64,000 nt of DNA, from assembly GCA_045647355.1 (NCBI GenBank), contig JAZRMF010000001.1:350679-414678 (forward strand), in the 5' to 3' direction. Source of the DNA: Candidatus Enterousia sp. GTDB taxonomy: Bacteria > Pseudomonadota > Alphaproteobacteria > Rs-D84. The notes beneath the pieces are model-generated. The model was not told the origin of the DNA, did not search any database, and worked only from the letters and a program-made list of their open reading frames with translations. Of the stretch, positions 27,811 to 45,503 are shown in pieces; the stretch's first letter is position 1, and each line of letters opens with the position of its first letter. The position numbers and the translations under genes are program-made.

Positions 27811-27902
27811 TAGTTTCAAAACTTACCTGTTTGGGCAAGTTTTTGTTGGGAATATAAGTATTTCAACAAGTTTAAGTCTGAAGTATATCAAAGGTGGTTT
27901 AT

Positions 27903-28538: not shown

Positions 28539-28634
28539 TTTATCTTTCATCTCTTCAATCTTTTGCCCGATTTTGATTATGTCGGTTTGCGAATTGCCCA
28601 GACAAGTGCAACCACAGTTCCCAAACTTGCCCAC
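28524..28634 (-). CDS. small ORF (36 aa, GTG start) embedded in repeat module copy 1: MGKFGNCGCTCLGNSQTDIIKIGQKIEEMKDKLFLV
   Basis: Against copies 2 and 3, substitutions fall at codon positions 1 and 3 with none at position 2, and indels are multiples of 3. Its 3' end overlaps the convergent phosphatase gene. Confidence 0.35.
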   Translation of the reverse strand: MGKFGNCGCTCLGNSQTDIIKIGQKIEEMKDKLFLV

Positions 28635-28745
28635 CGGGGCAAGTTTTTATTTATTTTCCAATACCTACAAAAAGTTCAAAAGTTTAAAACATTGTGATTT
28701 TTCGCCACTTTTGAACCCCAGAAAAAAACGGTTCTTGTAATGGTA
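28539..28745 (+). repeat. intergenic repeat module, copy 1 (conserved core 28539..28625 plus hairpin and T-run 28626..28652)
   Basis: The core tttatctttcatctcttcaatcttttgcccgattttga…tcggtttgcgaatt…caaccacag aligns with 30461.., 31990.. and 32695... The distal part (cgccacttttgaac…ggtactataaat) also recurs after copy 2. Confidence 0.7.
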
Positions 28746-29525: not shown

Positions 29526-29597
29526 TCTAATCTCTTTTTTTCTTTACATTCATTTGGGGCATTATATCATAGAAACCAACAATGAAAAGGTTTTATT

Positions 29598-30365
29598 ATG
29601 ATAATTGGTATGGTCAGATACGCAATCCCGAACAGTTTTATGAATTCGAATAATTCGCGTTCTTTGGTGCAATTATATGAAGATCCATATTTTTCAGACC
29701 GGTTTAATATCTTTCGCAATATAACACTGCCATCATTTGCACAGCAAACAAACCAGGATTTTACCCTGTGTGTATATCATACGAACTTGATTCCAGATGA
29801 TAAAAAGGTATTGTTTGATAACCTTGCCAAACAATATCCATTCCTAAGAAATGTTTACACAGCCGGCAAAATGGACATTCCGGATGATTTGAAAGAACGG
29901 CAAATGCTGACATTCCGAATAGATAATGATGATGGCATGGCCTTGGATTTTATTGAAAAATTGCAACAAATCAAAGAAATCGTTGGGAATAAAACATCAA
30001 ATTTTGCGATCAGCATTCCACATATGCGAAAAATCGCCAGGATTGATAATTTTTTGTATCAAACATTGGAAACGGATTTTATATCAAATTCTATGGGCTT
30101 AGCGTACCTTGGGAACGATGGGCGCACTGTTATGAACCTGGGTAATCATACCAAGGTTGCTTATTCCACCCCAATGCTGATGGTTGCCGGCAATGGCGGT
30201 CTGCAAGTGATAAATGGTTATAATGTGGCCAATGGTTTTAAGAAAGTATATCAAAACCAATCGGATATGGCTATTTTGAATCAAAAAGATATGCAAGATC
30301 TGCTGGTCAAAGACGGATATGCCAAAATGGATTTATCTTGCCTGCCAATCATAAAATCCAGATAG
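29598..30365 (+). CDS. hypothetical protein (possible GT-A-like fold; DNDDG motif)
   Basis: 255 aa with RBS AAAAGG. No confident family assignment. Confidence 0.5.
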   Translation: MIIGMVRYAIPNSFMNSNNSRSLVQLYEDPYFSDRFNIFRNITLPSFAQQTNQDFTLCVYHTNLIPDDKKVLFDNLAKQYPFLRNVYTAGKMDIPDDLKERQMLTFRIDNDDGMALDFIEKLQQIKEIVGNKTSNFAISIPHMRKIARIDNFLYQTLETDFISNSMGLAYLGNDGRTVMNLGNHTKVAYSTPMLMVAGNGGLQVINGYNVANGFKKVYQNQSDMAILNQKDMQDLLVKDGYAKMDLSCLPIIKSR

Positions 30366-30437
30366 TGTTTGTGTATTTTGCATATTACATATTTTTAACT
30401 TATTGCCCACACAGGCATAATTTATTAATAAAATTAT

Positions 30438-30524
30438 TTAATACAGATTCGGTAAACCTAATTTATCTTTTACTTCATCAATCTCTTGCCCGAATTCTAA
30501 CAACTCGGTTTGCGAATTACACAT
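30438..30524 (-). CDS. small ORF (28 aa from ATG; 36 aa from an upstream TTG) in repeat module copy 2: MCNSQTELLEFGQEIDEVKDKLGLPNLY
   Basis: Paralog of the copy 1 and copy 3 small ORFs. Conserved NSQT…(I/F)GQ(K/E)I.E(M/V)K(D/E)KL. Confidence 0.35.
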   Translation of the reverse strand: MCNSQTELLEFGQEIDEVKDKLGLPNLY

Positions 30525-30662
30525 ATAGCACAACCAAAGATTCAAACACCCGAAAGGGTGTTTTAATTTTTTGTTCGGGTCGAAAGGTTGAAATTAAAAA
30601 GTGGTAAAAAAATCACCATTTTCGAACTTTTTATACTATAAAAAGTTTTATTTTTTAATGAT
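30441..30662 (+). repeat. intergenic repeat module, copy 2 (core 30461..30540, hairpin acacccgaaagggtgt plus T-run)
   Basis: Aligns with copy 1 through tttatcttttacttcatcaatctcttgcccgaattct…tcggtttgcgaattac…cacaaccaaag and the distal part. Confidence 0.7.
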
Positions 30663-31187
30663 TTATTTGTTTTTTAGGTAAAAATCCAGTGCATGATATG
30701 CACTATCAAAAGCCAAAGGTAGATCTGCTAAGTCTTGCGGATTTTCTATGGAATACCATTTTACATCAGATACTTCGTCTCTTTGTAAATTGAATTTCGC
30801 ATCATCATCAATTTTTGCAACAAAAAAAGCATCACACGTTTTGTATTGAAAATTTTTGTATTCGTATGTATTAGGAAAAGTACACAAATATTTCAAAATT
30901 GTTATATTGATACCTAATTCTTCACGACATTCACGAATACACGCCTGTTCGGTACTTTCATCGTGTTCTACAAAACCACCAGGTAAACCAAGTAAGCCAA
31001 ATTTAGGTTCTTTGGCGCGTACTTCAAATAATATTTGACCGTGGGTATTTATAATAATCACGGCGACCGCTGTTGCAGAATTATTGTATAAAACAAACCC
31101 GCAATCAGGACATTCCCATTTACGATTATTTATATTTTTGACATTTTGACCGGCACAAATAGGGCAAAATTTAAAGTCATTTTTCAT
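30663..31187 (-). CDS. NUDIX hydrolase with N-terminal zinc ribbon (NudC-like architecture)
   Basis: CPIC…CPDC zinc ribbon and NUDIX box GGFVEHDESTEQACIRECREELGI. Start taken at MKNDFKFCPICAG (the ORF track extends to 31259). Confidence 0.75.
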   Translation of the reverse strand: MKNDFKFCPICAGQNVKNINNRKWECPDCGFVLYNNSATAVAVIIINTHGQILFEVRAKEPKFGLLGLPGGFVEHDESTEQACIRECREELGINITILKYLCTFPNTYEYKNFQYKTCDAFFVAKIDDDAKFNLQRDEVSDVKWYSIENPQDLADLPLAFDSAYHALDFYLKNK

Positions 31188-31282
31188 ATAAACTGCTTTT
31201 AATAAAATTATTCCAATATAAACTAAGTTGAATAGTACAAAAAATCTATCATTTTTCAAGTTGTTATATTACAATTCAATTT

Positions 31283-31681
31283 ATGAAAGTACTTACTTTA
31301 TATCAACCATATGCGGCTGCGATAGCATTGGGCTTAAAGAAATATGAAACGCGATCTTGGGCAACATCTTATCGCGGGCTTTTGGCGATTCATACATCGG
31401 TAAAAAAACTATCGCCAGAATTAAAGAAATTAGCCGAACATTATCAAATAACAAATCTTGAATATGGAAAGATAATTGTTATTTGCGAATTGCAAGATTG
31501 TATCGAAATGACAGATTGTTTTATACAATCTCAATCAATCACGGAAAGGAATTTTGGAATTTGGACGCCAGGTCGTTTTGCGTGGAAAATAAAAGTATTA
31601 AAAATCTTGAAAGAACCAATTTCTGTTCGTGGTTATCAAAAGCTTTGGAATATAGATTTAACCGAAGAGATTGTAAAATGA
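31283..31681 (+). CDS. ASCH (PUA-like) domain protein
   Basis: MKVLTLYQPYAAAIALGLKKYETRSWATSYRGLLAIHTS matches the ASCH consensus M..L.I.QPWA..I..G.K..E.R.W.T.YRG.L.IHA. Confidence 0.6.
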   Translation: MKVLTLYQPYAAAIALGLKKYETRSWATSYRGLLAIHTSVKKLSPELKKLAEHYQITNLEYGKIIVICELQDCIEMTDCFIQSQSITERNFGIWTPGRFAWKIKVLKILKEPISVRGYQKLWNIDLTEEIVK

Positions 31682-31989
31682 TTATAACAATTTGTGGCAG
31701 TTTGAAATTTCAACAAGAAATGATAACCATAGCACAAAAGATGACTTTCAGGGGGCATTGTGTAATCACACCAATTTTCCAAACCTCTAAAAATCCAAAT
31801 TATACCGAAGAACAAATACAAAAGTTAAAAAATGCACATTTAAAAAAAATAGATATTTCTGATGCGATATTGGTTGTAAATGTAAATAATTATATCGGCG
31901 ATTCTACAAGTTTAGAGATTGAATATGCTGAACAACACAAGAAACAGGTGTTGTATTATACAAACCTTATGCGAGAATTAGAAAAATAA
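31678..31989 (+). CDS. hypothetical small protein (103 aa); possibly nucleoside 2-deoxyribosyltransferase-like fold
   Basis: The ATG overlaps the upstream stop (ATGA). The ORF track's longer form 31483.. overlaps the ASCH gene in another frame, so 31678 is preferred. Confidence 0.45.
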   Translation: MIITICGSLKFQQEMITIAQKMTFRGHCVITPIFQTSKNPNYTEEQIQKLKNAHLKKIDISDAILVVNVNNYIGDSTSLEIEYAEQHKKQVLYYTNLMRELEK

Positions 31990-32094
31990 TTTCTCTTTCA
32001 TCTCATTAATCTCTTGCCCAATCTGAATCAAATCGGCTCGCGTTTTGCTAGCATCCCACAACCAAGATAAAATAAAAATATCCCATCGGGGCAT
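31978..32094 (-). CDS. small ORF (38 aa from MPRW…; ORF track gives a 93-aa form 31978..32259) in repeat module copy 3: MPRWDIFILSWLWDASKTRADLIQIGQEINEMKEKLFF
   Basis: Paralog of the other small ORFs, two codons longer (in-frame indel). Its C-terminus overlaps the convergent 31678..31989 gene by about 12 nt. Confidence 0.35.
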   Translation of the reverse strand: MPRWDIFILSWLWDASKTRADLIQIGQEINEMKEKLFF

Positions 32095-32148
32095 TTTTTT
32101 GCATTTCTGCATTTTTTGTAATACAGTGGAACAAAAGAGGTAATTTCC
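31990..32148 (+). repeat. intergenic repeat module, copy 3 (core 31990..32066)
   Basis: tttctctttcatctcattaatctcttgcccaatctgaatcaaatcggctcgcgttttgc…ccacaaccaag aligns with copies 1 and 2. A T7 run at 32094-32100. Confidence 0.7.
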
Positions 32149-32694
32149 ATGCAAGAATTGTTGAGTTTTCCACAAATCATAAAATCGGCCCGATTGGTGT
32201 TGAGTGTGGTTGCGCCAACCACAGAAAATGCTTCGATGCTTTTGGACATTATCAATCAAGATCGTGATTATTTAATGGCTTGGCAAGGACACTTCGGCGA
32301 ATTAAAAACTGTTGATGATGTGATGGCATACCTGACAAAACGTGCAAACCAAATAAAAACCAACCAAGGTATGTGCTTTTACATTTTTCACAATAATATT
32401 ATTATTGGTCGCATTCAGTTCTTTGGTGTTGAAAATAATGCCTGCGAAATAGGATATTGGTTGATAAAATCTGCAAATGGTAGTGGGTTTATGAGTGAAG
32501 CGCTGCAAGCATTAGAAGTTGAATTATTTAAATTCGGTTTTGAAAAGATTAAATTGGATATAGACAAGGGTAATACACGTTCAGAAAATCTAGCAAAACG
32601 CAATGGTTATAAATTGGAAAAAGTATTGCCTATGGCTTCTTGGGCAAAATGTGTTGGTAAATGTGATTCTTTGATTTACGTGAAAGAAAAATAA
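32149..32694 (+). CDS. GNAT family N-acetyltransferase (RimJ/RimL-like)
   Basis: …ACEIGYWLIKSANGSGFMSEALQALEVELFKFGFEKIKLDIDKGNTRSENLAKRNGYKLEKV… contains the GNAT acetyl-CoA-binding core. Confidence 0.8.
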   Translation: MQELLSFPQIIKSARLVLSVVAPTTENASMLLDIINQDRDYLMAWQGHFGELKTVDDVMAYLTKRANQIKTNQGMCFYIFHNNIIIGRIQFFGVENNACEIGYWLIKSANGSGFMSEALQALEVELFKFGFEKIKLDIDKGNTRSENLAKRNGYKLEKVLPMASWAKCVGKCDSLIYVKEK

Positions 32695-32765
32695 AATTTA
32701 TCTTTCAACTGCTTATGCCCAATAATTCAGTTCGCGGATAGTGCATATTTGCGTTGCGGGCATTT
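32695..32765 (+). repeat. intergenic repeat module, copy 4 (degenerate)
   Basis: tttatctttcaactgcttatgcccaataattcagttcgcggatag… shares the copy 1 start. The antisense ORF is interrupted by TGA, leaving the remnant …IGHKQLKDKF. Confidence 0.5.
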
Positions 32766-32810
32766 TTATTTTTTTTATTTTTATGATATAATTCTCATAG
32801 AGGTGTGTTT

Positions 32811-33104
32811 ATGAAAGTCACGATTGCGCTTGTGTTATTATCCATTTATACCGTGTTGGAATTTATCGCGTATATGCCACAAATAATAAAATTATTAAAA
32901 ACTAAATCAGCCGATGATTTAAGTTTGACATCTTGGTTCACATGGATTACCGCAGATTTGTGCTATTTGGCGTATGTGTTGTTGGAAAGTCCAGAGATTG
33001 GCGTCATATTTATTTGCTCATTGGATTTGGTTTTCTTGTTGGTGGTGTTTTTATTGACGGCATGTTATCAAAAACGTAAAAAACGCAAAAGAATTCGCCG
33101 TTAA
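32811..33104 (+). CDS. PQ-loop repeat protein, SemiSWEET-like 3-TM transporter
   Basis: 98 aa with 3 predicted TM helices. PQ motif in AYMPQIIKLLKTKSADDLS, then a basic KRKKRKRIRR tail. RBS AGAGGTG. Confidence 0.6.
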   Translation: MKVTIALVLLSIYTVLEFIAYMPQIIKLLKTKSADDLSLTSWFTWITADLCYLAYVLLESPEIGVIFICSLDLVFLLVVFLLTACYQKRKKRKRIRR

Positions 33105-34507
33105 TGTGTTTTGATATTGTGGCGTTGTAAAAATTTATTTTGATTTTCAATATATCTTTCTTGGGATAATCGACCGTTATTTGACATTTGCGGCGGTAAA
33201 CTGGCGATATAATTACCGTATGCGGTATTAAAATATTTTTTATCATAATTCTTTTCTTGTGATAATCGAATTCTATCGGCATCCCGTATAGATGCAGAAA
33301 TTAGATCTGGGGCACATATATCGGTTGAATTATGATATTTAATTGCATAAACAATCTTATCTATTGTGCCAGGGAAAAGACGCTCGCTATAATTTTTTTC
33401 TAGGAATATGCGTGCGATTTCCGCACCACGTTGTGCATGTTCTGCGTCGTCATCATAATCGCCGTCATCATGTTCTTTGGGTACGCGTGCAATATCGTGC
33501 AATGCCGCCCCTAACATAATTGGAAATGGGTCGGTTCCCATCGATATGGCGATTTCAATCGCAAATTGAACGACCTGGAACGTATGTGTGTACAGGCCAT
33601 GGTATCCGTATTTTGGTTGCGTGCCGATATTTTCAATTTTGGGTAAAATTTCGTTTATAAACAATTTGGTATAATATTCACGTGCACGAACCGCAGATTT
33701 TATGACCGATGGACGAGACCGCAGATTGTTAATGTTCGACCATATCGTCTGTTTGATATCCATTGAACATGCATGAGAAGATTCTGCTTTACGTAATAAT
33801 ATTTTTTCAAACTCGGCCATTTTGCGACAAGGAAATATTTGGTAATCCGCATGGATTTCCAATGGTTCACGTGGCGTAATTTTTTGGCCCAGATCCATGC
33901 GGGCAATATTTTCTGGGCGAAATACTATGTATGATGTGTGACCACGGTCTTCACGACGGTTGGTATAATTAAATCCGTCGTATCCCAGATGTTCAAAGTA
34001 TTGAATCATACGTTGTTGATATAGATGATATCGGTTTACTTGTTCGGGTGTGTGGCATGCATGTTGTTGTGCCGTGGTATTGTATAAATTATCTGTTTGC
34101 AATTCTTTTTTTACATCTGGTGTTGGTATATGAAATGGTTCTGTAAAAATATAATCATAAAAATAGGGAATATTGTTTAATTTTAGATCATGCACAATGT
34201 GGTATAAAACCACGCATTGAAAATAGTTGATATCTGAGGCTCCACCAAAATCATCAATTTCGTATGTGTTGATCAGATTTAATTGCACTGGAATAATTTT
34301 ATATGTTGAATCGTTTTTGAATGACGGGGGCATTTGTATGGAATATTCGTGTCTTATGTCCAATGTTTCGTCTTTTTGGCATGGACATAATAGTACACAT
34401 TCTTGGGCGGCGGGATAAGAGCCAAAATGCGATAGTGGGCGGAATTTTTCAAATTCTGCCCGGGTGCCATGATAGAAAATATTATTTTGATCCAAAAATA
34501 ATGCCAT
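33101..34507 (-). CDS. HD-domain phosphohydrolase with unknown ~300-aa N-terminal region
   Basis: HTFQVVQFAIEIAISMG…LGAALHDIARV… is the H…HD signature of the HD superfamily. The N-terminal half has no recognisable domain. Confidence 0.65.
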   Translation of the reverse strand: MALFLDQNNIFYHGTRAEFEKFRPLSHFGSYPAAQECVLLCPCQKDETLDIRHEYSIQMPPSFKNDSTYKIIPVQLNLINTYEIDDFGGASDINYFQCVVLYHIVHDLKLNNIPYFYDYIFTEPFHIPTPDVKKELQTDNLYNTTAQQHACHTPEQVNRYHLYQQRMIQYFEHLGYDGFNYTNRREDRGHTSYIVFRPENIARMDLGQKITPREPLEIHADYQIFPCRKMAEFEKILLRKAESSHACSMDIKQTIWSNINNLRSRPSVIKSAVRAREYYTKLFINEILPKIENIGTQPKYGYHGLYTHTFQVVQFAIEIAISMGTDPFPIMLGAALHDIARVPKEHDDGDYDDDAEHAQRGAEIARIFLEKNYSERLFPGTIDKIVYAIKYHNSTDICAPDLISASIRDADRIRLSQEKNYDKKYFNTAYGNYIASLPPQMSNNGRLSQERYIENQNKFLQRHNIKTH

Positions 34508-34557
34508 AGGGTATATGGTATCACTAATTAAGAAAATGTCAATATTGCAAGTCTATA

Positions 34558-35121
34558 TTAAAACTGTATTATTGGCATGATTTCTGGTAATTTTGGTAAC
34601 ACAAAATGTCCGTACCCAGAAAATCGATGAACACGAATATCGGGTATGTTTTTTGTGATTTTATCAAAACTGCTGACTATGTGGGGCATATCATCGTCCG
34701 AGATTAACAGGTCTATGCCGCATTTTGTTTGTGATACAATTTTGTTGTTTAAATTGGCGCCTTTATAGAATTCAAATGGTTGAAAATCTTCGGCGTCTAT
34801 CCATGGTGCAACCAATACGATTTGCTTTACCACCAATTCAGGGTGCGTTGCCATATACTTTAATATGAACCCGCCACCGGCGGAATGTCCAATTAGTATT
34901 GTATCTGTATTTATATCATGGGTATCCATAATTTTTTCCCATTCGGGGTATTTCATAAGCAGTGCATGCGCATGTGGAAAGCGCGGTATTTGCATAACAA
35001 CATCATGTTGGGCTTCGGTCATAAATTGCAACCAATCTTTCCACCCCTTGGCCTCGTTGTAGATTTTATTGTTCCAATCTTCATCTGGTCCCATAACACC
35101 GTGACAGAAAATGATATTCAT
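34558..35121 (-). CDS. alpha/beta serine hydrolase, RBBP9/YdeN-like
   Basis: 187 aa. Nucleophile elbow GHSAGG. IFCHG start and His near the C-terminus, as in the Ser_hydrolase family. Confidence 0.7.
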   Translation of the reverse strand: MNIIFCHGVMGPDEDWNNKIYNEAKGWKDWLQFMTEAQHDVVMQIPRFPHAHALLMKYPEWEKIMDTHDINTDTILIGHSAGGGFILKYMATHPELVVKQIVLVAPWIDAEDFQPFEFYKGANLNNKIVSQTKCGIDLLISDDDMPHIVSSFDKITKNIPDIRVHRFSGYGHFVLPKLPEIMPIIQF

Positions 35122-35248
35122 GCGTGTTATCCTTTTGTTTGTTGAAAGTATCCTAGTATTCGGGTGTGGAAAAATCTAGTCTTTTATCTTGCCATAAGGT
35201 ATTTTTTCCTTTACGATTAAATTAAGAAAAAAATCAAAGGGGTAATGC

Positions 35249-36178
35249 ATGTATAAATACAGCAAGTTTCGTCAGATTTGTGCAACAATTGCCGGATGTT
35301 TCGGTAAAACGCGGTCGGCGCGTCGTCTGCATCGTGACCTGGTACGGTATAAAGGGCTGATTTCTACAGTTGGTCAAACGATGATTCCACGCAAGAAATA
35401 CCCAGTAAAAATTCCAATGGCGTTTTGCTTTGATGCGCGTGGTTGCAAAATGGCGGCGGTAACATTGAAGTCTTTACTTTTGGCATCCAAAGATCGTTGC
35501 GATTATGATGTTTATTGTGTCGTTACCCCCGATGTAGATGAGAGTTTGCGTGACGTTATTCGTGGTGTTTTAAAGGGTACAGATTCAGATGTCCACTTTG
35601 TTTTGGGTAACAATGATTTCGATGAATCTTGGCGTGGCAAATGGCCGGTTGCGATGTGGTATCGGTTGATGTTGCCGAAATTAGTGCCAAACGTTGATAG
35701 AATTATTTATGCGGATATTGATATGATATTCTTCCGCGATTTGATTGATATATATGAACTGGAATTGGGCGATAATGTGATTGCCGCGGTTCCAACACGT
35801 ACGACCAAGTATATCAATTCAGGATTTTTGTTGATGGATTTAGACAAGATTCGTCGTGAAAATATTTATGAAAAATGGGTTACAGAATCCAGAACTCATG
35901 AATACAGCAATCCTGACCAAGACGTGTTGAATTATACTTTGATTGGGCGCATAACATTTTTGCCGTTGCGGTATAATTTTCAACTGTCGCATGGGTCACG
36001 CATATTCAAGATATACCCAGAATCGGAATTGGATGATTTAAAACATAATTTGGTCGTGTTGCATTATTCTGATTATATGAAGCCCTGGTACGAGGTGGGA
36101 CGTCGCCCGGTGTATTCTGAATACTGGTGGAATGTTGCGCGTCAAACCGGATTGTTTGATGAAGGGGCGGGCAAATAA
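35249..36178 (+). CDS. family 8 glycosyltransferase (LPS-core 1,2-glycosyltransferase-like)
   Basis: GT8 motifs DIDMIFFRDL (DxD), NSGFLLMDL, and C-terminal LHYSDYMKPW. A start at MIPRKKY (35381) is also possible. Confidence 0.75.
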   Translation: MYKYSKFRQICATIAGCFGKTRSARRLHRDLVRYKGLISTVGQTMIPRKKYPVKIPMAFCFDARGCKMAAVTLKSLLLASKDRCDYDVYCVVTPDVDESLRDVIRGVLKGTDSDVHFVLGNNDFDESWRGKWPVAMWYRLMLPKLVPNVDRIIYADIDMIFFRDLIDIYELELGDNVIAAVPTRTTKYINSGFLLMDLDKIRRENIYEKWVTESRTHEYSNPDQDVLNYTLIGRITFLPLRYNFQLSHGSRIFKIYPESELDDLKHNLVVLHYSDYMKPWYEVGRRPVYSEYWWNVARQTGLFDEGAGK

Positions 36179-36262
36179 ACTGTCTATGCGGCGGTTTATT
36201 TCCTTTACACGGTTTTGAAAAATATATTATGATGAGTATGGGAAAAAAATCTTAACACAGGA

Positions 36263-37015
36263 TTGAGAGTTATGCGACACGCAATTGTGAATATTATTTG
36301 TATGTTTATTTGGAAAAAATCCCTGCGTGACAAGGTGCGTACCATACTTTATTATCCCCAGGTTCGTGACTATAACCAATTCGTTCGTGATTATGCGCAT
36401 CGCCATAAAATGAAAAATTGCAAGATTAAAACCAAGGTCGGTTGGATATGTTGCAACTGGGTCGTTATATTAAATGATAAACATGTGTTTAAATTTCCTT
36501 TAAAGTCGGATGGCAAGGATGCCGCAATACGTGAACAAAGGTTAACCGATGCGTTGCGTAAAGTGTCACCAATCAAGATTCCGCAAATGGAAACGATTAT
36601 TTATAAAGATATTGCGGTCCGCCGTTATGAATTTGCCCACGGTAAATTGTTTTCTGATTTGTCCCGGGCCGAGGTCGCAAAAAATGCGCAACATTTGTCG
36701 AAACAGATTGCAAATTTCTTGTACGTGTTGGGGCGTGCAGATCCACGCGAAATTGCCGATTTAAAACCAAGTGGCGCGGGCAAACCGGGGTTTTTATATG
36801 GATGGAATCATGGCGATATATGGCAGAATTTTATGGTTAATCCGAAAACGTTTGATATAACGTTCTTTATAGATTGGGAATCGGCAAATTTTGGTTCAAT
36901 GTATCCATGCCTTTATTCTGCGGACTATCATTGGGTACGATTTGGTTTCCGTGGGTTGATAGTCTATATCATGGCGGAATATGCAACAATGTATTTTAAA
37001 AAGAATTCAAAATGA
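36263..37015 (+). CDS. kinase-fold phosphotransferase (APH / Kdo-WaaP LPS-kinase-like), tandem paralog 1
   Basis: Catalytic-loop signature WNHGDIWQNFMVNP…IDWESANFG (HGD…N…IDWE). Paralog of the next gene. Confidence 0.55.
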   Translation: MRVMRHAIVNIICMFIWKKSLRDKVRTILYYPQVRDYNQFVRDYAHRHKMKNCKIKTKVGWICCNWVVILNDKHVFKFPLKSDGKDAAIREQRLTDALRKVSPIKIPQMETIIYKDIAVRRYEFAHGKLFSDLSRAEVAKNAQHLSKQIANFLYVLGRADPREIADLKPSGAGKPGFLYGWNHGDIWQNFMVNPKTFDITFFIDWESANFGSMYPCLYSADYHWVRFGFRGLIVYIMAEYATMYFKKNSK

Positions 37016-37710
37016 AAAAATTATTAGTAAATATTTTGTGTATGTTTGTTCCGGGGCGACATCGGCGGGCGATGTTGCGCGTGCGCCTTAATTATCCGAT
37101 TCGTCGTTGGACACGTTTCGCAAAAAGTTTTAGTCATAAACCCAATCCGTATGTGAAATATACTTATGGTCATCGTTGCATAAATTTTGTTGTGAACATT
37201 GATAATAAATATGTTTTTAAATTTCCATTAAAGACAGACGGTCATGAAATTTCGATTCGGGAAAAGCGTATAACCGATGCGTTGCGTCCGATATCACCGA
37301 TTAAAATTCCGAAAATGGACATAGTGGAATTTGACGGTATGGCGATTCGTAAATATGAATATGTTAATGGTGTTGGGTTTCATGCGCTGGACAGAAAAAC
37401 GCAGGATGCGCATATTGAAAGAATTGCAAAACAATTGGCGAAGTTCTTTTTTGTTGTTGGCATGTCTGACCCGCGCGAGATTCGTGATTTAAAGCCCAAG
37501 AAAAATGATAAGCCATCCATCATGCATGGTTGGAATCAAAACGATTTGTGGGATAATTTCATGCTGAACCCAAAGACGTTTGATGTTGTTGCCATGATAG
37601 ATTGGGAAGAGGCCGGATTTAACGATTTTCATCGTCGGTTTAGTGGTGGTACGGGAAATGGTTTGGCCAAGGCAACGTTGTTGCGCGAATATTTAAAATT
37701 GTTTTCATAA
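37012..37710 (+). CDS. kinase-fold phosphotransferase (APH / Kdo-WaaP LPS-kinase-like), tandem paralog 2
   Basis: WNQNDLWDNFMLNP…IDWEEAGFN. HGD is altered to NQND, so activity may differ. Overlaps the upstream gene by 4 nt. Confidence 0.5.
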   Translation: MKKLLVNILCMFVPGRHRRAMLRVRLNYPIRRWTRFAKSFSHKPNPYVKYTYGHRCINFVVNIDNKYVFKFPLKTDGHEISIREKRITDALRPISPIKIPKMDIVEFDGMAIRKYEYVNGVGFHALDRKTQDAHIERIAKQLAKFFFVVGMSDPREIRDLKPKKNDKPSIMHGWNQNDLWDNFMLNPKTFDVVAMIDWEEAGFNDFHRRFSGGTGNGLAKATLLREYLKLFS

Positions 37711-37768
37711 CGTGCCGATTTTTTTGATGGCGTTCATTTTATATAGAAAAAAATCCTAAATAAAAAAA

Positions 37769-37798
37769 CGCAGATTTCTGCGGGTTCTGTTGTTTTTT
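37769..37798 (+). terminator. putative intrinsic terminator
   Basis: cgcag-attt-ctgcg hairpin followed by ggttctgttgttttttg. Confidence 0.35.
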
Positions 37799-37876
37799 GA
37801 AAATCAAAAAAACACTTGCCAATTCATAATATATGTAGTTAAGTATATAACATTAGGAAAAGAAAGGAGAGCCTTT

Positions 37877-40800
37877 ATGAAACAATCAAAAACCACACTC
37901 AAAGAATTAACTGCCGCATATCGTGCAGTGTTACGTCATGGTATATTGTGCAATGCAATTGCACTTGGCTTAATCGCCGCAACACCGGCGGTGGGTGCAA
38001 CACATAACTATATACCTGATGCGGGAAATTGGGGAACGCAGGAAATTAAAAATGAAATTGCAGCGGATACTTGGGATAGTTCGGTTATATTTATCAATAA
38101 AGCAGGGGTTATTATCGGAGAGAATTCTGTATTTGAAGGAAATAAATCGGGATTGGGTGGTGCCATTAGTATTGCAAAACAAATCGGCGAAGTTTCAATT
38201 GGAGACGGAACGGTATTCAAGAATAACACCTCTATTTATGATGGTGGGGCCATAGGAAATTATGGATCTGCGATTTTGGGTAGCGATATTTCGTTTATCA
38301 ATAATAGGTCAAATATCGCTGTTGATGGTTCCCAAGTTATGAGTGATAGTCAACCCATTGGCGGTGGTGCCATCTCTCTGGGTGTTAATGGCATTTTGAG
38401 TATATACAATTCCGCATTTATTGGAAACGAAACGGGATATAATGGTGGTGCTATTGCAACGCGCAGAACATTGCAAGCATCAGAGGCAACAGAAAGCGGT
38501 TTCGCCAATTTGGGAAATTTGTTGGAAATAGGCAGAGGAACAATATTTGATTCTAATAAAGCATGGGGTTATACAATAGATACCGCGAATGGTTCCAAAG
38601 TAGGCGGTAATGGTGGTGCAATTGCGAATACATTTGCGACGGCGGATATTACAGGTGCCACATTTACCAATAATATCGCACAAACAAATGGTGGCGCAAT
38701 TTATAACACTACATTTATAAATGCGGATGCAACAGGGACAGATTCTGGGAAAGGTGGTGTGATGACAATCACCGATTCTGGGTTCTCTGGGAACAGCGCT
38801 GGTGGTGAAGGCGGGGCAATTTATAATACTGGCGATTTGACCATTGCGGCGATGAATTCTGACGTAAATTTCCATGGCAATACCGCAAATGGCGCGGCAA
38901 ATGATATCTATAATGCCGGTCATTTAACATTGCATGCTTCAGAAGACAGGACTATGAGCTTGGCCGGTGGTATCAGTGGACTTAACGGAACATTAGATGT
39001 CGTTGGTCGTGGCACGGTTGAGATATCTAATTCTTTAAATAACCAAACGGTTACGGTTGGTTCGGGGCAACTGCATCTAACTTCACCTATGGATTTGACA
39101 GGTACGATGATTACTGTTGCAACGGGCGCAAAATTAAATACAGTGGATAATGCCATTAATGATTATTCGGCGCATACCATGTTGGGTAACTATTCTGAGA
39201 TTTTGGTCGATGTTAGTGCAGACGGCATAGATAAATTTAATATCCTGTTTGGAAATACCATTTCTGTGGATGGATTTACACTGTTGTCTGATTTAGAAAC
39301 AGTTGACACGGTAAGAAAGTTGTCTGAATATGGAAATATTACAGATAACCCGACATTTAAGGCCTATACAACCAACAGTATTTACACCTTGACCGGGAAT
39401 AATGCAAATGATGGTACGGTCACAATTCACAAAGGTGGCACCGGTGGTTTGATTAATGCGATTGGTGATACGACAGATGAAAATCACGAAGGCATGTATT
39501 ATTCTCTGACAGGGAATGATACCAGTGTTACGTCCAATGTAGCACTTAGAAATGCCGATGTCGACGTTCATGGTGTTGGCACGGGCGATGGTGACTATGG
39601 TATAACATTGGGGGCGAATATTGGGGTTGGTGATAACTCTTCGTTTGTAACGCACAATGTCAAAATTGATGGTAATGCTAATATAGAAAATTCTGAAGGG
39701 GCACAGATTGGGTTTAACAGTTCCAAGATTGATGTGGGCATTACTAATGATGGTATCATTGGTGTATTTGATACAACATTGGTCGCCGGAAATATGTTTG
39801 AAAACCGTGCAACTGCGACCACGGTGGTGTTTAATTCAACGGTAGATGCAAATGTTTGGAATTTTGGTCGTTGGATTTCTGACCCGTCAACGTACACTGG
39901 TGAATTTGAAAACGAAGGCTACGCATCGTTTGATGCAGATACATTTACATCGACCGCGGTGTTGAATAATGTGGGAACGGTTGATTTAACAAATGGGGTT
40001 ACGTTTGAAAATGGTGCAGAAATCGCCAGCGATGGTATAATCAATTTGGCAAGTGGTACGACACACTTTAATAATACTGCATCTTCAAATACAATCAATT
40101 TGTTAAATGGTGCGGACTTTGATGGTGTGTTAACTGGAACCGGAATCCTGAATATGTCAAACGGTACCATTGATACGGTTACTGGTGGGGTTGCCGGTGG
40201 CGGTTTGATTGTTGATGCAAACCTGAAAGGTGCGGGAACAATTGATACATTAACCGGCGGTACAACAGGTGCCAAAATCAAAACCATCAATGTTTTGAAC
40301 AGCGAATATGGAACAGCAGGTTCTTTAAGTTTGAATATTGGTGGTGCAACGTTGGATGATGATTTGCAGATTAATGGTATGAATTATTATACCAACGTAG
40401 CCGTAGATGGTGAAAATCTTGTATTGAGTGACAAGTTGATGAATACGTCAGGGTTGCATGCTCAATTGGGCAGTTGGAATGGAACCATTATCGGCACGTC
40501 CAGTACATATGATGCAGAAACCAATTCATATACATCCACAGGGACCACGGTTGGCGAAGCTTTGACGGCATTGGAAACCGCGGTCAATGGAAAGGTTGGT
40601 GCGTCTGATATATACACGGCGACAATAACCGACACAGCGGTTGACAATAGCAATAGCAAAGTTGTTTCTGTGACCGCTTTCCAAAACTCAATTGCTAACT
40701 TAAAGAACAGTGCAAATACCTGGGCTGGTGTCCAAGGGTTTACCAATGGCATAACCATTGGCAGTGACTATGGTATTACCGGTGCAGGTGTCGCGACATT

Positions 40801-41929
40801 GGGGGCAACCAGCGTTTCATCTTTGACGATGGGAGGTCAAACGGTTTCTGGTATTGATACATCCGTTGCACAGGGTAGCAGTAATTTGGTTACGTCTGGT
40901 GCGGTTTATTCGGCGGTTACCACTGCTGTGGGACATGCAAGTGATTCAGAGCATGGTGTAGATGCGTCAGGGGTGTACGTTGCTATCGAGGCCAATACAG
41001 CGGCAATTACATCCAATACGGAAGCAATTGAAACATTGACTGGTACTGGTTCAAATTCTGTGTCAGGTCAGATTGCGAGCAATGCAGAAAATGCGACTTA
41101 TACCGCGGGTGGCACTCATGCAGATGGTACAATTGGTGCAGCATTGGATAGTTTGAATATTACGGTTGCAGAGCATACCAATGCGATAAATGATATAAGC
41201 ACTGCATTGGGGCATGCAAGTGACGGAAACAATGCGGCCACAGGTTTATTCGCAACAGTTGAAGAGAATTCTGCGACAATTGCTGCATTGACTGGTAACG
41301 GTTCAGGTTCTATTTCAGGTCAGATTGCAAGTAATGCAGAAAATGCGACATATACCGCAGATGCAGATCATGCGTCTGGAACCATTGGTGCGGCGATAAG
41401 TCAAAATGCATCAGATATTGCTGCAATTGACGGAAAGATCGGTGATATGACCGAATTTGATGGCAATAATTATGCGACCGATACAGCAAGTGTTTCGGCG
41501 AACTTGGTTGCGTTGGATGGTCAATTAAAGACAACATCGGACAAAGTTGATAAATTGAACGCTGATGAAAATACCGACGGTTCTGTGCGCAATATTGCCA
41601 AGAGTTACTTCGACTTGATGGCACAGGATAGCGCATTAACATTGAGTGAAGCAAATGCGTATACCGACAAACGTATCGAAAAGTTAGATCAAGATTTGTC
41701 TGCGGGTATCGCAAGTGCGGTTGCGTTGTCATCGGTTGCGGTGTCTGATGTACGTCGTGGCGAACTGTCGGTCGGTGCGGGTTACGGTTACTTTAACGGT
41801 CAATCCGCCGGTGCGTTCGGTGCCGCGATGGGTATATCGAACAGATGGTCTGTTAATGCCGGTGCTGGTATATCTGGATACGATGTATCGTTCCGCGCAG
41901 GTACAAACTATAAATTCAAAGTATTTTAA
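37877..41929 (+). CDS. trimeric autotransporter adhesin (YadA-like C-terminal anchor) with chlamydial Pmp-type (GGAI / FxxN) passenger repeats
   Basis: RBS AAGGAGA and ATG at 37877 (the ORF track starts at 37790). Multiple GGAI and FxxN motifs (GLGGAISIA, YDGGAIGNY, YNGGAIATR, GNGGAIANTF, TNGGAIYNTTF, GEGGAIYNTG). Repeated ~78-aa stalk units with SGQIASNAENATYTA. C-terminal …GIASAVALSSVAVS…SVGAGYGYFNGQSAGAFGAAMGISNRWSVNAGAGISGYDVSFRAGTNYKFKVF matches the YadA anchor. Confidence 0.8.
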   Translation: MKQSKTTLKELTAAYRAVLRHGILCNAIALGLIAATPAVGATHNYIPDAGNWGTQEIKNEIAADTWDSSVIFINKAGVIIGENSVFEGNKSGLGGAISIAKQIGEVSIGDGTVFKNNTSIYDGGAIGNYGSAILGSDISFINNRSNIAVDGSQVMSDSQPIGGGAISLGVNGILSIYNSAFIGNETGYNGGAIATRRTLQASEATESGFANLGNLLEIGRGTIFDSNKAWGYTIDTANGSKVGGNGGAIANTFATADITGATFTNNIAQTNGGAIYNTTFINADATGTDSGKGGVMTITDSGFSGNSAGGEGGAIYNTGDLTIAAMNSDVNFHGNTANGAANDIYNAGHLTLHASEDRTMSLAGGISGLNGTLDVVGRGTVEISNSLNNQTVTVGSGQLHLTSPMDLTGTMITVATGAKLNTVDNAINDYSAHTMLGNYSEILVDVSADGIDKFNILFGNTISVDGFTLLSDLETVDTVRKLSEYGNITDNPTFKAYTTNSIYTLTGNNANDGTVTIHKGGTGGLINAIGDTTDENHEGMYYSLTGNDTSVTSNVALRNADVDVHGVGTGDGDYGITLGANIGVGDNSSFVTHNVKIDGNANIENSEGAQIGFNSSKIDVGITNDGIIGVFDTTLVAGNMFENRATATTVVFNSTVDANVWNFGRWISDPSTYTGEFENEGYASFDADTFTSTAVLNNVGTVDLTNGVTFENGAEIASDGIINLASGTTHFNNTASSNTINLLNGADFDGVLTGTGILNMSNGTIDTVTGGVAGGGLIVDANLKGAGTIDTLTGGTTGAKIKTINVLNSEYGTAGSLSLNIGGATLDDDLQINGMNYYTNVAVDGENLVLSDKLMNTSGLHAQLGSWNGTIIGTSSTYDAETNSYTSTGTTVGEALTALETAVNGKVGASDIYTATITDTAVDNSNSKVVSVTAFQNSIANLKNSANTWAGVQGFTNGITIGSDYGITGAGVATLGATSVSSLTMGGQTVSGIDTSVAQGSSNLVTSGAVYSAVTTAVGHASDSEHGVDASGVYVAIEANTAAITSNTEAIETLTGTGSNSVSGQIASNAENATYTAGGTHADGTIGAALDSLNITVAEHTNAINDISTALGHASDGNNAATGLFATVEENSATIAALTGNGSGSISGQIASNAENATYTADADHASGTIGAAISQNASDIAAIDGKIGDMTEFDGNNYATDTASVSANLVALDGQLKTTSDKVDKLNADENTDGSVRNIAKSYFDLMAQDSALTLSEANAYTDKRIEKLDQDLSAGIASAVALSSVAVSDVRRGELSVGAGYGYFNGQSAGAFGAAMGISNRWSVNAGAGISGYDVSFRAGTNYKFKVF

Positions 41930-42009
41930 GTTATGGTTTGAATTAAACAAAAATGCCTTGGCGTTGGCCAAGGTGTTTTTGTTTGTTGTGTTGAAATGTT
42001 TCGTAAATA

Positions 42010-43122
42010 TTATGCGGCTTTTTCCATGCCTGCCTTGATATTCCGTACATATTTACGCAATTCGTCAATTGAAACCAATTTGCCATCGCGCTTTTCGGCC
42101 GACCAATAATCCCAACCATTATAACTGGTACAATGTTGGATGCGGGCCGCCATAACATGGATGGATGCCTTGCCATATAAACTGTGCACCAGGTTGCCAT
42201 CAGACGCAATCATGACACGTTCGCCCTTGGGGCTGACCAATGTTTGTCCAGGATAGAGCAGGCCACCATCGATAAGTTCACGAAATGCAACACGCACTTC
42301 GTCACGTTTTGGTTTTGCAACCTCGATATTCGATAAATCAATTGGGGTTACATGTGCAACACGTTCACGTGCCGCCAAAACGTATGATTCTTCGCGATCA
42401 ATGCCGATAAATTGTCTGCCCAATTCGCGTGCCGCGGCGGCGGTGGTTCCAGACCCGACAAATGGATCTAAAATAATATCGCCGGGTTTGGTTGATGCCA
42501 AAATTACGCGGCGCAATAAGTCCATTGGTTTTTGTGTGTTGTGCAAACTTTTGCCAGTTGCATCTTTAAGGCGTTCTTCTCCAAGACAAATGTTCATTTC
42601 CCAATCCGAACGCATTTGTTTTCCACCGTTCAGATTTTTCATCGTTTCATAATTAAATGTATATTTGCCGGTCTTGGTTGGTGTTGCCCATATCAATGTT
42701 TCATGCGCATTGGTAAAACGTGTGCCACGAAAGTTAGGCATAGGATTTGTTTTTACCCATACGATGTCGTTTAAAACCCAAAAACCTTGTTCTTGCAATA
42801 TGGCGCCAATTTGAAAAATATTGTGATATGTTCCAATAACCCACATGGCGCCATCTGGGCGCAGGACACGTTTACATTCAGCAATCCATTTTCGTGAAAA
42901 TTCATTATATTCTGCGGGTGACGCAAAAGAGTCCCAATTATCGCGAACCGCACGTGCGGCTGTTTGATCTTCGGGGCGATAAAGTGTTTTCTGCCCCAGT
43001 TGTAAATTGTATGGAGAATCCGCAAATACTGCATCAACAGAACCGTCGGGAATCCCGCGCATCAGTTCAATGCAATCACCAATTAAAATTTGGTTAAGGT
43101 ATTTTTCCATTCTCTCTGCCAT
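42010..43122 (-). CDS. ccrM: CcrM-like N6-adenine DNA methyltransferase (GANTC-type, beta-class) with C-terminal CcrM extension
   Basis: FADSPYNLQ (DPPY-type motif IV) precedes DPFVGSGTTAAAA (motif I). WVIGTYHNIF and LNDIVWVKTNPMPNFRGTRFTNAHETLIWA are near-identical to Caulobacter CcrM. ~90-aa C-terminal extension. Confidence 0.85.
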   Translation of the reverse strand: MAERMEKYLNQILIGDCIELMRGIPDGSVDAVFADSPYNLQLGQKTLYRPEDQTAARAVRDNWDSFASPAEYNEFSRKWIAECKRVLRPDGAMWVIGTYHNIFQIGAILQEQGFWVLNDIVWVKTNPMPNFRGTRFTNAHETLIWATPTKTGKYTFNYETMKNLNGGKQMRSDWEMNICLGEERLKDATGKSLHNTQKPMDLLRRVILASTKPGDIILDPFVGSGTTAAAARELGRQFIGIDREESYVLAARERVAHVTPIDLSNIEVAKPKRDEVRVAFRELIDGGLLYPGQTLVSPKGERVMIASDGNLVHSLYGKASIHVMAARIQHCTSYNGWDYWSAEKRDGKLVSIDELRKYVRNIKAGMEKAA

Positions 43123-43271
43123 ATCAAGTCAATTATACCACATTTTGAACCTAAAAAATTTGTCATTGGGGCGATATACAATAAAAAAAGGTCTTGATTT
43201 TTTGTAAAAAAGCAATTTTTTAGAAATAAAATCACTTTACACAAGACGAATAGATTGCTAAATTATCGTGT

Positions 43272-43772
43272 ATGAGATGTCCATATTGTAATTATGCCGA
43301 CAGCAGGGTCGCGGATTCGCGCCCTGATATGGAAAGCGGAACTATCCGCCGCCGTCGTGTTTGTAATCAATGCGGGGCGAAATTTACCACTGTGGAACGT
43401 GTGCAAATGCGGGATTTGGTTGTTAAGAAAAACAGTGGTAAAACAGAACCGTTTGATCGCGATAAATTGCGTCGCAGTATAAAATTGGCGTGTCATAGCC
43501 GTGAAGTAGGGGACGAGCAAATTGAACGCCTGGTGGCATCTATTCAACGAAGACTAGAAACAGAAACGGCCGATGATATGGTAACCAGCGCGCAAATTGG
43601 TGAAATGGTTTCCGATTCGTTGCTGAATTTGGATCCGATTGCGTTTGTGCGATTTGTTTCTGTATATCGCAAGTTTTCAAAAGTATCTGACTTTAAAAAA
43701 ATTATCGACACTATCCCAGAGGTTACCGACGAAACCATTGTTTGCAAATTGCCAAAGACCACACTTTTCTAG
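43272..43772 (+). CDS. nrdR: transcriptional repressor NrdR
   Basis: MRCPYCNYADSRVADSRP…RRRRVCNQCGAKFTTVERV zinc ribbon plus an ATP-cone domain. Confidence 0.9.
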   Translation: MRCPYCNYADSRVADSRPDMESGTIRRRRVCNQCGAKFTTVERVQMRDLVVKKNSGKTEPFDRDKLRRSIKLACHSREVGDEQIERLVASIQRRLETETADDMVTSAQIGEMVSDSLLNLDPIAFVRFVSVYRKFSKVSDFKKIIDTIPEVTDETIVCKLPKTTLF

Positions 43773-43778
43773 GGTTTA

Positions 43779-45503
43779 ATGATGAAAAAAATTGTTGCCT
43801 TCATTTTTACCTTGTTTGTGCCGCTTGCATTGTACGCATCGCCGACCATAGACATATTGTCTGATGCCGATGAAAGTTTATATTCGCAAATTTTTATGTT
43901 GCAAGATGCCGAGAAAATTTCTGTGGCGCAAAAATTAGAACATCAATTATCTGACCCAATTTTGATGAACGAGGTTTTGTATCAACGTTATTTTTCAAAA
44001 TCGTATCATACCAAGGGTGCAGAGGTTCAGGCATGGATGAAAAAATATAATGATATGCCCGGCGCGGCGCGTGTTGAAAAGTTGGCCAAATTGAAAAAGG
44101 TTACCGTAAATTCGGCACGTGTCCCCAGTATGTTATCGGGTGGAATGTCAATTGAGACGGCGCAATCTGAAACATGGACAGCAAAGCAATATTCTGGGGC
44201 GGCCGATAAAAATATTACAAAATTTCGTAAGGCGATTCGTTCGGGCAGCACCAAGACTGCGCGCAATATATTGGAAGACAAATCATTTAAACGCAAATTA
44301 ACAGAATCTGATTATGGCCGTTTGGCGGGGCGTTTGGCATATGTTTATTATACAAATGGCGAATATGAACTGGCCAAGAAATGGGGTTTTGTGGCGTCTG
44401 ATGCAGAATCAGAATATGGATTGTGGACGATGGGGTTGTTGTATTTCAAAGAAGAAAAGTATAAAGAAAGCGAAAAATATTTTAGTCGAATTTTGCAATT
44501 AAAACAAATCAACAATGCACGCAAGACCGAGGCAGCATTTTGGGCGGGGCGCGCGGCAAGTATGCGTGACGAAAGGTCCAAGGCGCGTGAATATTGGGAA
44601 ATTGCGGCCGCACATCCGATGGCTTTCTATGGTGCATTGGCGGCAACGATGATGGGTAATGTTCCAGAATACGAATTTTTTGAACAAGAATTTACCGATG
44701 ATGATATTGAAGAACTGCGGCGTGATAAATACGGCAAGATGGCACTTGCGTTATTGCAATTAAATCGTCGTGAACGTGCCGAGGCATATCTTAAATACAT
44801 GATAACGTCCAAGGTTTCTGATAGAAATCTGCATGCGATAAATGCAATCGCAACGGCATATGGTTTATCACGTGTCGCGATTCAAGCATCGGGTGTTATT
44901 CGTGATAGGGGTATTTTAGAAATAGACGATGATGTTATATATACTGCGCAATATCCGTTGCCTGATTGGGAACCAATGGGTGGTTGGTCTATTGATCGCG
45001 CATTGTTGTTGGCGATTATTAAACAAGAAAGTGGTTTTAGAACGGGCGCAAAATCTGGCGCTGGCGCAAATGGGGTTATGCAGATTATGCCGGGAACCGC
45101 AAAGCGTGTTGCGCGTGCAAACAAGGTAAAAATGTCTGATATTGATATGTCGAATCCGGAACATAACATGTTCTTGGGGCAGCAGTATATTGTTGATTTG
45201 TTAATGCACCCGAATATCAATAATAATATTATTAAAATGTTGGCCGCATATAATGCGGGGATGGGGTCATTGGTTAAATTTGAAAAATCGTTCAGTACCA
45301 AAGATCCTTTATTGTATATCGAAAGTTTCCCTGCATACGAAACACGTGGATATATAAAACGTGTTATGGCGAATTTATGGCTGTATCGTGCGCGCCTTAA
45401 TCAGCCACTTACGACGTTGAAAGTTTTGGCGGATTCTGATTGGCCACTTTACAATAGTCAAGATGAATATGTTCGTGCAGAAGAGATTCCTTATTCGATT
45501 TAA
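43779..45503 (+). CDS. soluble lytic murein transglycosylase (Slt family)
   Basis: Signal peptide, superhelical N-terminal region, and catalytic core …LLAIIKQESGFRTGAKSGAGANGVMQIMPGTAKRVA…AYNAGMG. Confidence 0.8.
   Translation: MMKKIVAFIFTLFVPLALYASPTIDILSDADESLYSQIFMLQDAEKISVAQKLEHQLSDPILMNEVLYQRYFSKSYHTKGAEVQAWMKKYNDMPGAARVEKLAKLKKVTVNSARVPSMLSGGMSIETAQSETWTAKQYSGAADKNITKFRKAIRSGSTKTARNILEDKSFKRKLTESDYGRLAGRLAYVYYTNGEYELAKKWGFVASDAESEYGLWTMGLLYFKEEKYKESEKYFSRILQLKQINNARKTEAAFWAGRAASMRDERSKAREYWEIAAAHPMAFYGALAATMMGNVPEYEFFEQEFTDDDIEELRRDKYGKMALALLQLNRRERAEAYLKYMITSKVSDRNLHAINAIATAYGLSRVAIQASGVIRDRGILEIDDDVIYTAQYPLPDWEPMGGWSIDRALLLAIIKQESGFRTGAKSGAGANGVMQIMPGTAKRVARANKVKMSDIDMSNPEHNMFLGQQYIVDLLMHPNINNNIIKMLAAYNAGMGSLVKFEKSFSTKDPLLYIESFPAYETRGYIKRVMANLWLYRARLNQPLTTLKVLADSDWPLYNSQDEYVRAEEIPYSI

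Follow-up and report, generated by a model that had tools for sequence, protein, structure and literature searches.

The subclasses of type V secretion are taught as separate, the type Va autotransporters being single-chain β-helices and the type Vc proteins being obligately trimeric head-and-stalk lollipops. In the type Vc proteins, the trimeric autotransporter adhesins (TAAs), the passenger consists of a stalk that is a coiled coil and a head that is globular (PMC6555100). The polymorphic membrane proteins (Pmps) of chlamydiae have been described as adhesins and are listed under type Va only in a review (PMC9289746), which also cites a study that, by its title, traces adhesion to short repetitive peptide motifs. 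In a 2026 preprint on 12,394 proteins with a YadA anchor, Pmp is nowhere mentioned and the search for novel TAA domains is reported to have found no further ones. Here we describe a gene in a 64,000-nucleotide stretch of DNA from Candidatus Enterousia sp. (positions 350,679 to 414,678 of contig JAZRMF010000001.1; the whole stretch is called the window, and positions are those of the window unless stated otherwise). This gene, at positions 37877-41929 on the + strand, codes for a protein of the trimeric autotransporter type with 1350 aa, to which an earlier note, made from the letters of this DNA, had assigned a Pmp-type passenger and a YadA-type anchor. The gene very probably encodes a type Vc adhesin of an Rs-D84/Candidatus Enterousia alphaproteobacterium whose passenger is a Va-type β-helix tipped with Pmp repeats and which is, as a whole, a recombinational mosaic.

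The C-terminal end of the protein, residues 1271-1350 (41687-41926, + strand), is a YadA-type anchor with a pore helix, LSAGIASAVALSSVAV, four predicted β-strands, and the C-terminal residues ...YKFKVF. Pfam YadA_anchor (PF03895) matched residues 1292-1347 of the 1350 with 38.1 bits compared to a cut-off of 22.7 bits (E 1.7e-9), and it was also matched by all 26 of the 26 relatives that were scanned. By phmmer the anchor matched that of YadA, 2lme, with an E of 0.004. When a profile was made from the last ~105 aa of the family members the match to 2lme had an E of 3.3e-13 and covered positions 15-102 of the profile and 18-105 of the chain, and this profile also matched AtaA 9vnj (2e-6) and Hia 2gr7 and 3emo (4e-6 and 1e-5, respectively). 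Judged from these alignments, homology to the solved trimeric 12-strand anchors extends over the whole length of the anchor, and the YadA membrane anchor that the earlier note had recognized at the C-terminus is thereby upheld. The anchor is 94-99% identical to the anchors of other family members. The protein has those defining features of a type Vc autotransporter that can be tested and lacks the usual Vc passenger modules, which are common in such proteins without being obligatory; YadA_head (PF05658), YadA_stalk (PF05662), and the necks did not match the protein at E≤1 or the 26 relatives at E≤0.01. From the homology of the anchor we infer that the protein is trimeric.

At the other end of the protein, following the leader, there is a Pmp-type repeat head at residues 42-350 (38000-38926, + strand) with seven GGAI/FxxN pairs, and it ends in a cap, TANGAANDIYNAG...SLAGGISG, the conserved form of which is TANGxANDIYNxG...SLAGGIxG. 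Exact GGAI was found seven times, at residues 94, 123, 163, 190, 246, 272, and 312, which is a 14-fold excess over the 0.5 obtained when the composition was shuffled, and FxxN was found eight times within residues 86-332, seven of these fitting FxxNx[AS] compared to 0.75 expected. The two motifs form seven regular FxxN...GGAI pairs, all of them within residues 86-340. The earlier note had seen at least eight such motifs over the N-terminal 500 aa; it was right that these are Pmp motifs, but the clean pairs are seven and they occupy a shorter stretch. Pfam Chlam_PMP (PF02415) matched the protein with 21.7 bits compared to a cut-off of 20.6 bits and TIGR01376 matched it with 19.5 bits compared to a cut-off of 15 bits, and the search of the passenger with Pmp-repeat profiles that had been proposed as a check was thus positive. 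Among the family members 24 of 26 matched Chlam_PMP, the best of them with an E of 1.3e-31, and the family profile also matched the crystal structure of Rhombotarget A (9cdu) with an E of 5e-8. ChlamPMP_M, which is the Pmp middle domain and is the profile that the earlier note had named, was not matched by the protein at E≤1 and was not among the family-wide matches. In this Pfam scan only three listed families matched the protein at E≤1, and the PF03797 monomeric barrel was absent from it and from the 26 relatives. Lacking both the Va barrel and the middle domain of the Pmps, the protein falls outside the chlamydial Pmp family proper and instead carries Pmp-type repeats on a Va-like β-helix.

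The head is continued by a lineage-specific extension of the β-helix at residues 351-860 (38927-40456, + strand), and the most conserved segment of the passenger across the family is a core at residues 651-880 (39827-40516) with the motifs SDPTTY, FDxDTF, and VFSDKLxN. In an AlphaFold2 model of residues 42-900 as a monomer the mean predicted local distance difference test score (pLDDT) was 80, and most of residues ~290-850 scored above 90 and were all β-strand; within the head, confident modelling was restricted to residues ~290-350. The closest structural matches of the modelled passenger in a fold search were Vag8, pertactin, Hap, Ag43, and SPATE passengers. The model thus predicts that the passenger is a single-chain right-handed β-helix of about 800 aa like the passengers of type Va. 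Since pectate lyases, alginate lyases, and tailspike depolymerases have a similar fold, the passenger could instead be a surface-displayed enzyme that degrades polysaccharides, with the anchor presenting three catalytic β-helices in the manner of phage tailspikes, but we consider this improbable. The similarity to lyases and depolymerases at the level of the fold is all that speaks for such an enzyme, whereas the Pfam scan gave no lyase or hydrolase family, either for the protein (E≤1) or for any of the 26 members (E≤0.01), the generic Beta_helix family matched just one of the 26 members, and the signature that is found in the sequence is that of the Pmp adhesin repeat.

The reading of the protein as a Vc adhesin with a Pmp-type passenger is not confined to this one gene. 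When 5.8 billion proteins were searched, more than 45 clusters of 1400-2080 aa were found that carry both PF03895 and PF02415, and many type Va autotransporters (PF02415 and PF03797) were found whose match is limited to the first ~370 residues. The sequences that combine PF03895 and PF02415 are already in the databases, where the two domains have been precomputed, and the named relatives at NCBI are labelled "YadA-like family protein [Alphaproteobacteria bacterium]". A profile of the core at residues 651-880 was matched by 70 of 1.84 billion representative proteins (by 61 with E≤1e-30), and nearly all of the 70 are 1000-3800 aa in length and end in the same anchor or in a classic YadA anchor of the ...GVTYSW type. 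The same anchor is also found on short TAAs of 500-700 aa that have no Pmp repeats, and some long members of the family, for example that of locus L016, bear non-Pmp heads. The family is real, coherent, and narrow and comes from Rs-D84/Candidatus Enterousia-like metagenome-assembled genomes (MAGs) of gut and rumen, and within its lineage the long trimeric autotransporters have, as their standard form, a Pmp-repeat passenger with a YadA anchor. The earlier note had called this pairing unusual, and this holds insofar as the family is small and no paper was found, in a searchable literature that is incomplete, that describes Chlam_PMP or PF02415 together with YadA_anchor or a trimeric autotransporter; it does not hold within the lineage itself, where the pairing is no one-off. 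A locus from an Armatimonadota MAG, L035, was considered as a second phylum with this architecture and was ruled out because there the passenger is built of a Gly-rich repeat that is not of the Pmp kind, GDISGAAISGDSIAVTGNGTVGG, and the DAVNVRQL neck is a normal one. The open reading frame (ORF) in question, which ends at position 8279 of that locus, has 752 aa and a related YadA-type anchor, and its passenger is another non-canonical TAA passenger, outside Proteobacteria.

When the modules of the protein were compared one by one they did not all lead to the same relatives. The best match of the leader was the Vc protein P0007 (100%), that of the middle part was the Vc protein P0002 (59-79%), that of the stalk was the Vc protein P0005 (67-92%), and that of the anchor was several Vc proteins at the identities given above, whereas the head was best matched by Va proteins (62-64%) and no Vc protein was among its top seven matches. 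In the comparison of whole proteins the best N-terminal alignment with a Vc protein was only 39% identical, and this includes the near-identical leader. These module-by-module matches indicate that the protein is a recombinational mosaic with a Va-type head. In three of the related loci a Va barrel that is 40-54% identical to that of the Va protein P0034 is encoded beside the TAA gene (L005 ~13000-16153, L010 ~7004-7966, and L018 ~4930-5889, in positions of those loci), and in L005 the Va gene is placed between the TAA gene and ccrM. Va genes that adjoin TAA genes provide the physical proximity that is required for an exchange of heads, and since Va and Vc proteins are alike in topology, having an N-terminal passenger and a C-terminal anchor, the transfer of a head is mechanistically plausible. 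What we state here on the direction of this exchange between Va and Vc and on the function of the protein as an adhesin is what we infer.

Between the β-helix and the anchor lies the stalk, residues 861-1270 (40457-41686, + strand), which is made up of short helical segments and loops and ends, directly before the anchor, in ANAYTDxRIExLD, a YxD segment. This segment, ANAYTDKRIEKLD, is at residues 1259-1271, where Y1262 and T1263 do not vary across the family and the conservation of D1264 is at least 90%; the role of the YxD/RxD motif has been described (PMC6555100). The family profile matches the YadA stalk fragments 3h7x and 3lt6, the E values for 3h7x being 2e-4 and 1.5e-3. A hydrophobic periodicity near 3.5 was significant only around residues 970-1005 and 1080-1135 (z 2.4-3.2), and a monomer model shows many helices at residues ~890-1285, at a mean pLDDT of 55. 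The stalk contains a repeat, copy 1 of which is at residues 1014-1090 (40916-41146, + strand; ...GHASDSEHG...SGQIASNAENATYTAGGTHADGTIGAAL) and copy 2, after a spacer of 16 aa, at residues 1107-1174 (41195-41398, + strand). The earlier note had located these copies at about 40925-41160 and 41205-41400, which is nearly where they are, and had described them as tandemly duplicated in the DNA; the duplication is real, but the two copies are 80% identical in DNA only in a core of 118 nt (41025-41142 and 41277-41394). When Tandem Repeats Finder was run on the gene the stalk duplication was not called and only a 15-nt run of a hexamer was found, which means that the duplication is too diverged for detection. 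The stalk duplication is old and diverged and is not a recent tandem repeat. Within it the module NA(Q/E)NATYT..G.H..GTIGAA(L/I)D is found at 41081-41149 and 41333-41401 (residues 1069-1091 and 1153-1175), and among members of the family (P0002-P0029 included) this module is present in 0, 1, and 2 copies in 23, 8, and 7 proteins, respectively. The copy number of the stalk module therefore varies across the family, and not by recent slippage. That motifs such as LVTSGAVYSAV might come from phage tail fibres was also considered and found to be unsupported, as PHROGs gave no meaningful match to the passenger or the stalk.

Several observations weigh against a Vc adhesin with a Pmp-tipped β-helix. 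Most of the Pmp head, residues 42-250, was modelled by AlphaFold2 with a pLDDT below 50. A likely reason why this happens is that the MAFFT alignment that was used as input misplaced the Va homologues, which are 21-28% identical in that alignment compared to 52-64% by BLAST. For the C-terminal 491 aa (residues 860-1350) the monomer model is helical with the mean pLDDT that was given above for the stalk, and in the anchor it is below 50. A scan of the stalk for heptad periodicity, which is a simple test, was non-significant in most windows. The contig is assembled from a metagenome, and for this single gene a chimeric join between paralogues at the ANDIYN cap is conceivable. If so, the N-terminal part of a Va protein would have been joined in silico to a TAA at a conserved motif that both share. 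In line with this, the exact protein is known from one contig only, the head is 62-64% identical to Va proteins compared to at most 39% to other Vc heads, and the switch is at the ANDIYN...GGIxG cap, which is common to Va and Vc. Nevertheless an assembly artefact is very improbable because different samples and assemblers have yielded more than 45 independent clusters in which Chlam_PMP and YadA_anchor are found together, as they also are in several species-level genomes, the leader is of the Vc type and identical to that of P0007, so that a chimera would have to be joined twice, the reading frame has no break and the modelled β-helix crosses the junction smoothly and at high confidence, and the gene is in the expected syntenic slot. 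Finally, Chlam_PMP is a profile of 19 residues and its cut-off is exceeded in this protein alone by 1.1 bits only, but that GGAI and FxxN are mere chance products of a repetitive passenger rich in Gly, Ala, and Asn in an ordinary TAA is hardly credible when the seven GGAI form regular pairs with FxxN, TIGR01376 passes its cut-off as an independent second profile, relatives match as strongly as they do, the head is 54-64% identical to that of Va proteins which carry PF02415, the family profile matches Rhombotarget A, and no YadA head or stalk motif is present.

For a type Vc adhesin that is built in this way the following course of secretion and assembly can be proposed. The leader would route the chain through Sec, and the β-barrel assembly machinery (BAM) would insert a 12-strand barrel to which each of three chains contributes four strands, as is suggested by the homology of the anchor to those of YadA, Hia, and AtaA. 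The passengers would exit with the C-terminus first, and because that end emerges first, trimerisation would begin with the segmented stalk and its YxD coiled-coil segment, before the passenger folds. Each chain would then fold its own β-helix from the SDPTTY...VFSDKL core outward to the variable Pmp tip. A trimer would thus have three β-helical arms, either splayed or bundled like a phage tailspike, and by analogy with the chlamydial Pmps the Pmp tip would be the binding surface.

The gene is an uninterrupted ORF on the + strand and its 37877-41929 includes the stop codon. A ribosome-binding site, AAGGAG, can be read directly at 37864-37869 (+ strand), 7 nt before the ATG, and this spacing favours the ATG at 37877 as the start over an upstream TTG at 37790, from which a longer reading is possible but unlikely. 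The protein that begins at this ATG is identical to the recorded protein P0001, which is from one NCBI contig of 445 kb. There is a small hairpin 3' of the gene that lies upstream of the adhesin ORF, and a terminator-like hairpin with a 19-bp stem at 41944-41985 lies between the adhesin gene and a convergent gene for a CcrM-like methyltransferase (42010-43122, - strand). With hairpins on both sides and ccrM convergent to it, the adhesin gene is apparently its own transcription unit. No simple-sequence tract that would suggest phase variation was found within the ORF, and upstream of it there are short A/T runs only; nor was any further autotransporter paralogue found across the window.

The leader has 41 aa, MKQSKTTLKELTAAYRAVLRHGILCNAIALGLIAATPAVGA (37877-37999, + strand), and begins with an N-terminal extension of 21 aa that is charged and amphipathic, after which come a hydrophobic core and a cleavage-like VGA site; read from the sequence, it has a basic n-region and a hydrophobic stretch of 20 aa before the VGA site. 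It is presumably a Sec signal peptide with a lineage-specific extension. Residues 1-38 are 85-100% identical in other members of the family, and Pfam ESPR did not match the leader. The trimeric proteins (P0002-P0030) have in common a conserved long leader, MKQSKTTLKELTAAYRAVLRH, with the hydrophobic core, and diverged forms of it, MKMSRTAIKELTAAYRAVLKH and MKYSKSAIGLLTAQYRSVLKK, are found in type Va autotransporters and in TAAs with the classic YadA anchor (P0031-P0072 and P0141-P0162). By a strict regular expression the leader was counted in at least 22 of 58 trimeric proteins, at least 36 of 77 Va proteins, and at least 6 of 11 classic-anchor TAAs. In a 2026 preprint the alphaproteobacterial autotransporters are described as having neither ESPR nor any alternative long signal peptide. 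The conserved long leader may be an unrecognised analogue of ESPR.

The earlier note had taken the host for an alphaproteobacterium, and the related loci agree with this. All 34 of the 34 related loci in a collection of species-level genomes are from MAGs of gut or rumen with the labels Alphaproteobacteria bacterium, uncultured (alpha)proteobacterium, or Candidatus Enterousia, and a CcrM-like gene adjoins the adhesin gene in the window. The source genome itself is not part of this collection, and the organism is placed here through its relatives. Enterousia has been placed in the uncultured order Rs-D84, the genomes of which are mostly below 1 Mb and have no tricarboxylic acid cycle and no respiratory chain (PMC12306168). 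In 12 species (loci L001, L002, L004, L005, L006, L008, L009, L011, L012, L015, L017, and L019) the TAA gene is in the same syntenic slot, GT8-kinase-kinase-TAA-ccrM(-)-nrdR-SLT, which in the window is at 35249-45503; for GT8, and likewise for the first kinase paralogue, the number of species in which it was found was only 3-4 of 12. The flanking genes are well conserved with respect to the window, ccrM, nrdR, and SLT being 72-98% identical, GT8 71-73%, and the kinases 42-71%. In the four closest genomes, where CcrM is 92-95% and NrdR 96-98% identical, the TAA could be aligned only over its C-terminal 150-660 residues, with 60-76% identity. As judged from these identities the locus is an orthologous and fast-diversifying site for a surface protein. 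The passenger diverges far faster than its flanks, which is what one would expect if it is an adhesin or antigen that is exposed.

Directly upstream of the adhesin gene lie two kinase-like ORFs of ~230-250 aa (36263-37015 and 37012-37710, both on the + strand), which are paralogous, stand in tandem with an overlap of 4 nt, and are syntenic in relatives; only the second of them showed a match to the APH phosphotransferase family, and at 22.1 bits this was below the cut-off of 23.2 bits. The G+C content is 0.32-0.39 at positions ~26000-38000 of the window compared to 0.41-0.46 elsewhere, and the GT8 and kinase genes lie inside this low-G+C region, which could be a surface-modification island. 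An ORF of 468 aa at 33101-34507 (- strand) matched an HD domain (E 1e-10) and, below threshold, ART-PolyVal, the ADP-ribosyltransferase domain of polyvalent proteins. Elsewhere in the window there is an ORF of 1237 aa at 15384-19097 (+ strand) with N-terminal ankyrin repeats, which are a hint of an interaction with a eukaryotic host, and three ORFs of 975, 791, and 877 aa (3205-6132, 6318-8693, and 10658-13291, all on the - strand) have no Pfam match. Large unannotated proteins are numerous for a small genome.

Beyond the single gene we lean, with some caution, towards the explanation that small-genome Alphaproteobacteria of gut and rumen have transplanted Va Pmp-type passengers onto a Vc anchor, so that three independent β-helix arms would stand on one coiled-coil stalk, with a shared extended leader that is not ESPR and at a hypervariable syntenic locus. 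If this is true, a trimeric 12-strand pore can secrete three long β-helical passengers at once, heads are exchanged between two secretion subclasses, and such adhesins might mediate the attachment on which bacteria with reduced genomes depend. The family represents natural and heritable Va-style passengers on a Vc anchor, in which the head is visibly common to the Va and the Vc genes of one lineage. This raises questions that can be tested, namely, whether a trimeric 12-strand pore can export three long β-helices, whether folding of the β-helix drives secretion in Vc as it does in Va, and how freely passengers move between the subclasses. As the most variable surface protein at a conserved Rs-D84/Candidatus Enterousia locus, the protein is an obvious candidate for an attachment factor; its practical value is limited because the organisms are uncultured and there is no link to disease here.

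When the protein is compared with described systems, the likeness to phage tailspikes such as CBA120 TSP3 and those like P22 is an analogy only: PHROGs showed no sequence relationship for the passenger, and polarity and attachment differ. Rhombotarget A is a Pmp-repeat β-helix protein that has no autotransporter anchor, and its name, as we take it, points to a different anchoring or sorting system. With the chlamydial Pmps, which are of type Va, the protein shares the repeated GGA(I/L/V) and FxxN motifs, a predicted β-helical passenger, and a presumed role as an adhesin; unlike them it has neither the Pmp middle domain nor a monomeric 12-strand barrel, its anchor is of the trimeric type, and its host is an alphaproteobacterium. 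With YadA, Hia, and AtaA it shares the anchor, which is homologous from end to end, the YxD coiled-coil segment directly before it, the order of N-terminal signal, passenger, and C-terminal anchor, and a mosaic and repetitive build. Unlike these TAAs, the protein and its 26 relatives have no YadA-like head, neck, or YadA_stalk motifs, and in place of a trimeric left-handed β-roll or β-prism head the protein has the predicted single-chain right-handed β-helix of ~800 aa. The N-terminal part resembles Pmp-repeat Va autotransporters from similar gut and rumen metagenomes, for example P0031 (798 aa) and P0034 and P0047 (~1050 aa), in which leader and head are co-linear with those of the protein from residue 1, with 52-55% identity over residues 1-374 and 62-64% over the core of the head, and in which the head ends in the same ANDIYN...GGIxG cap. 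It is after this cap that they part, in that the Va proteins go on to a linker and the PF03797 barrel, whereas the protein described here goes on to about 500 aa more of β-helix, the stalk, and the YadA anchor.

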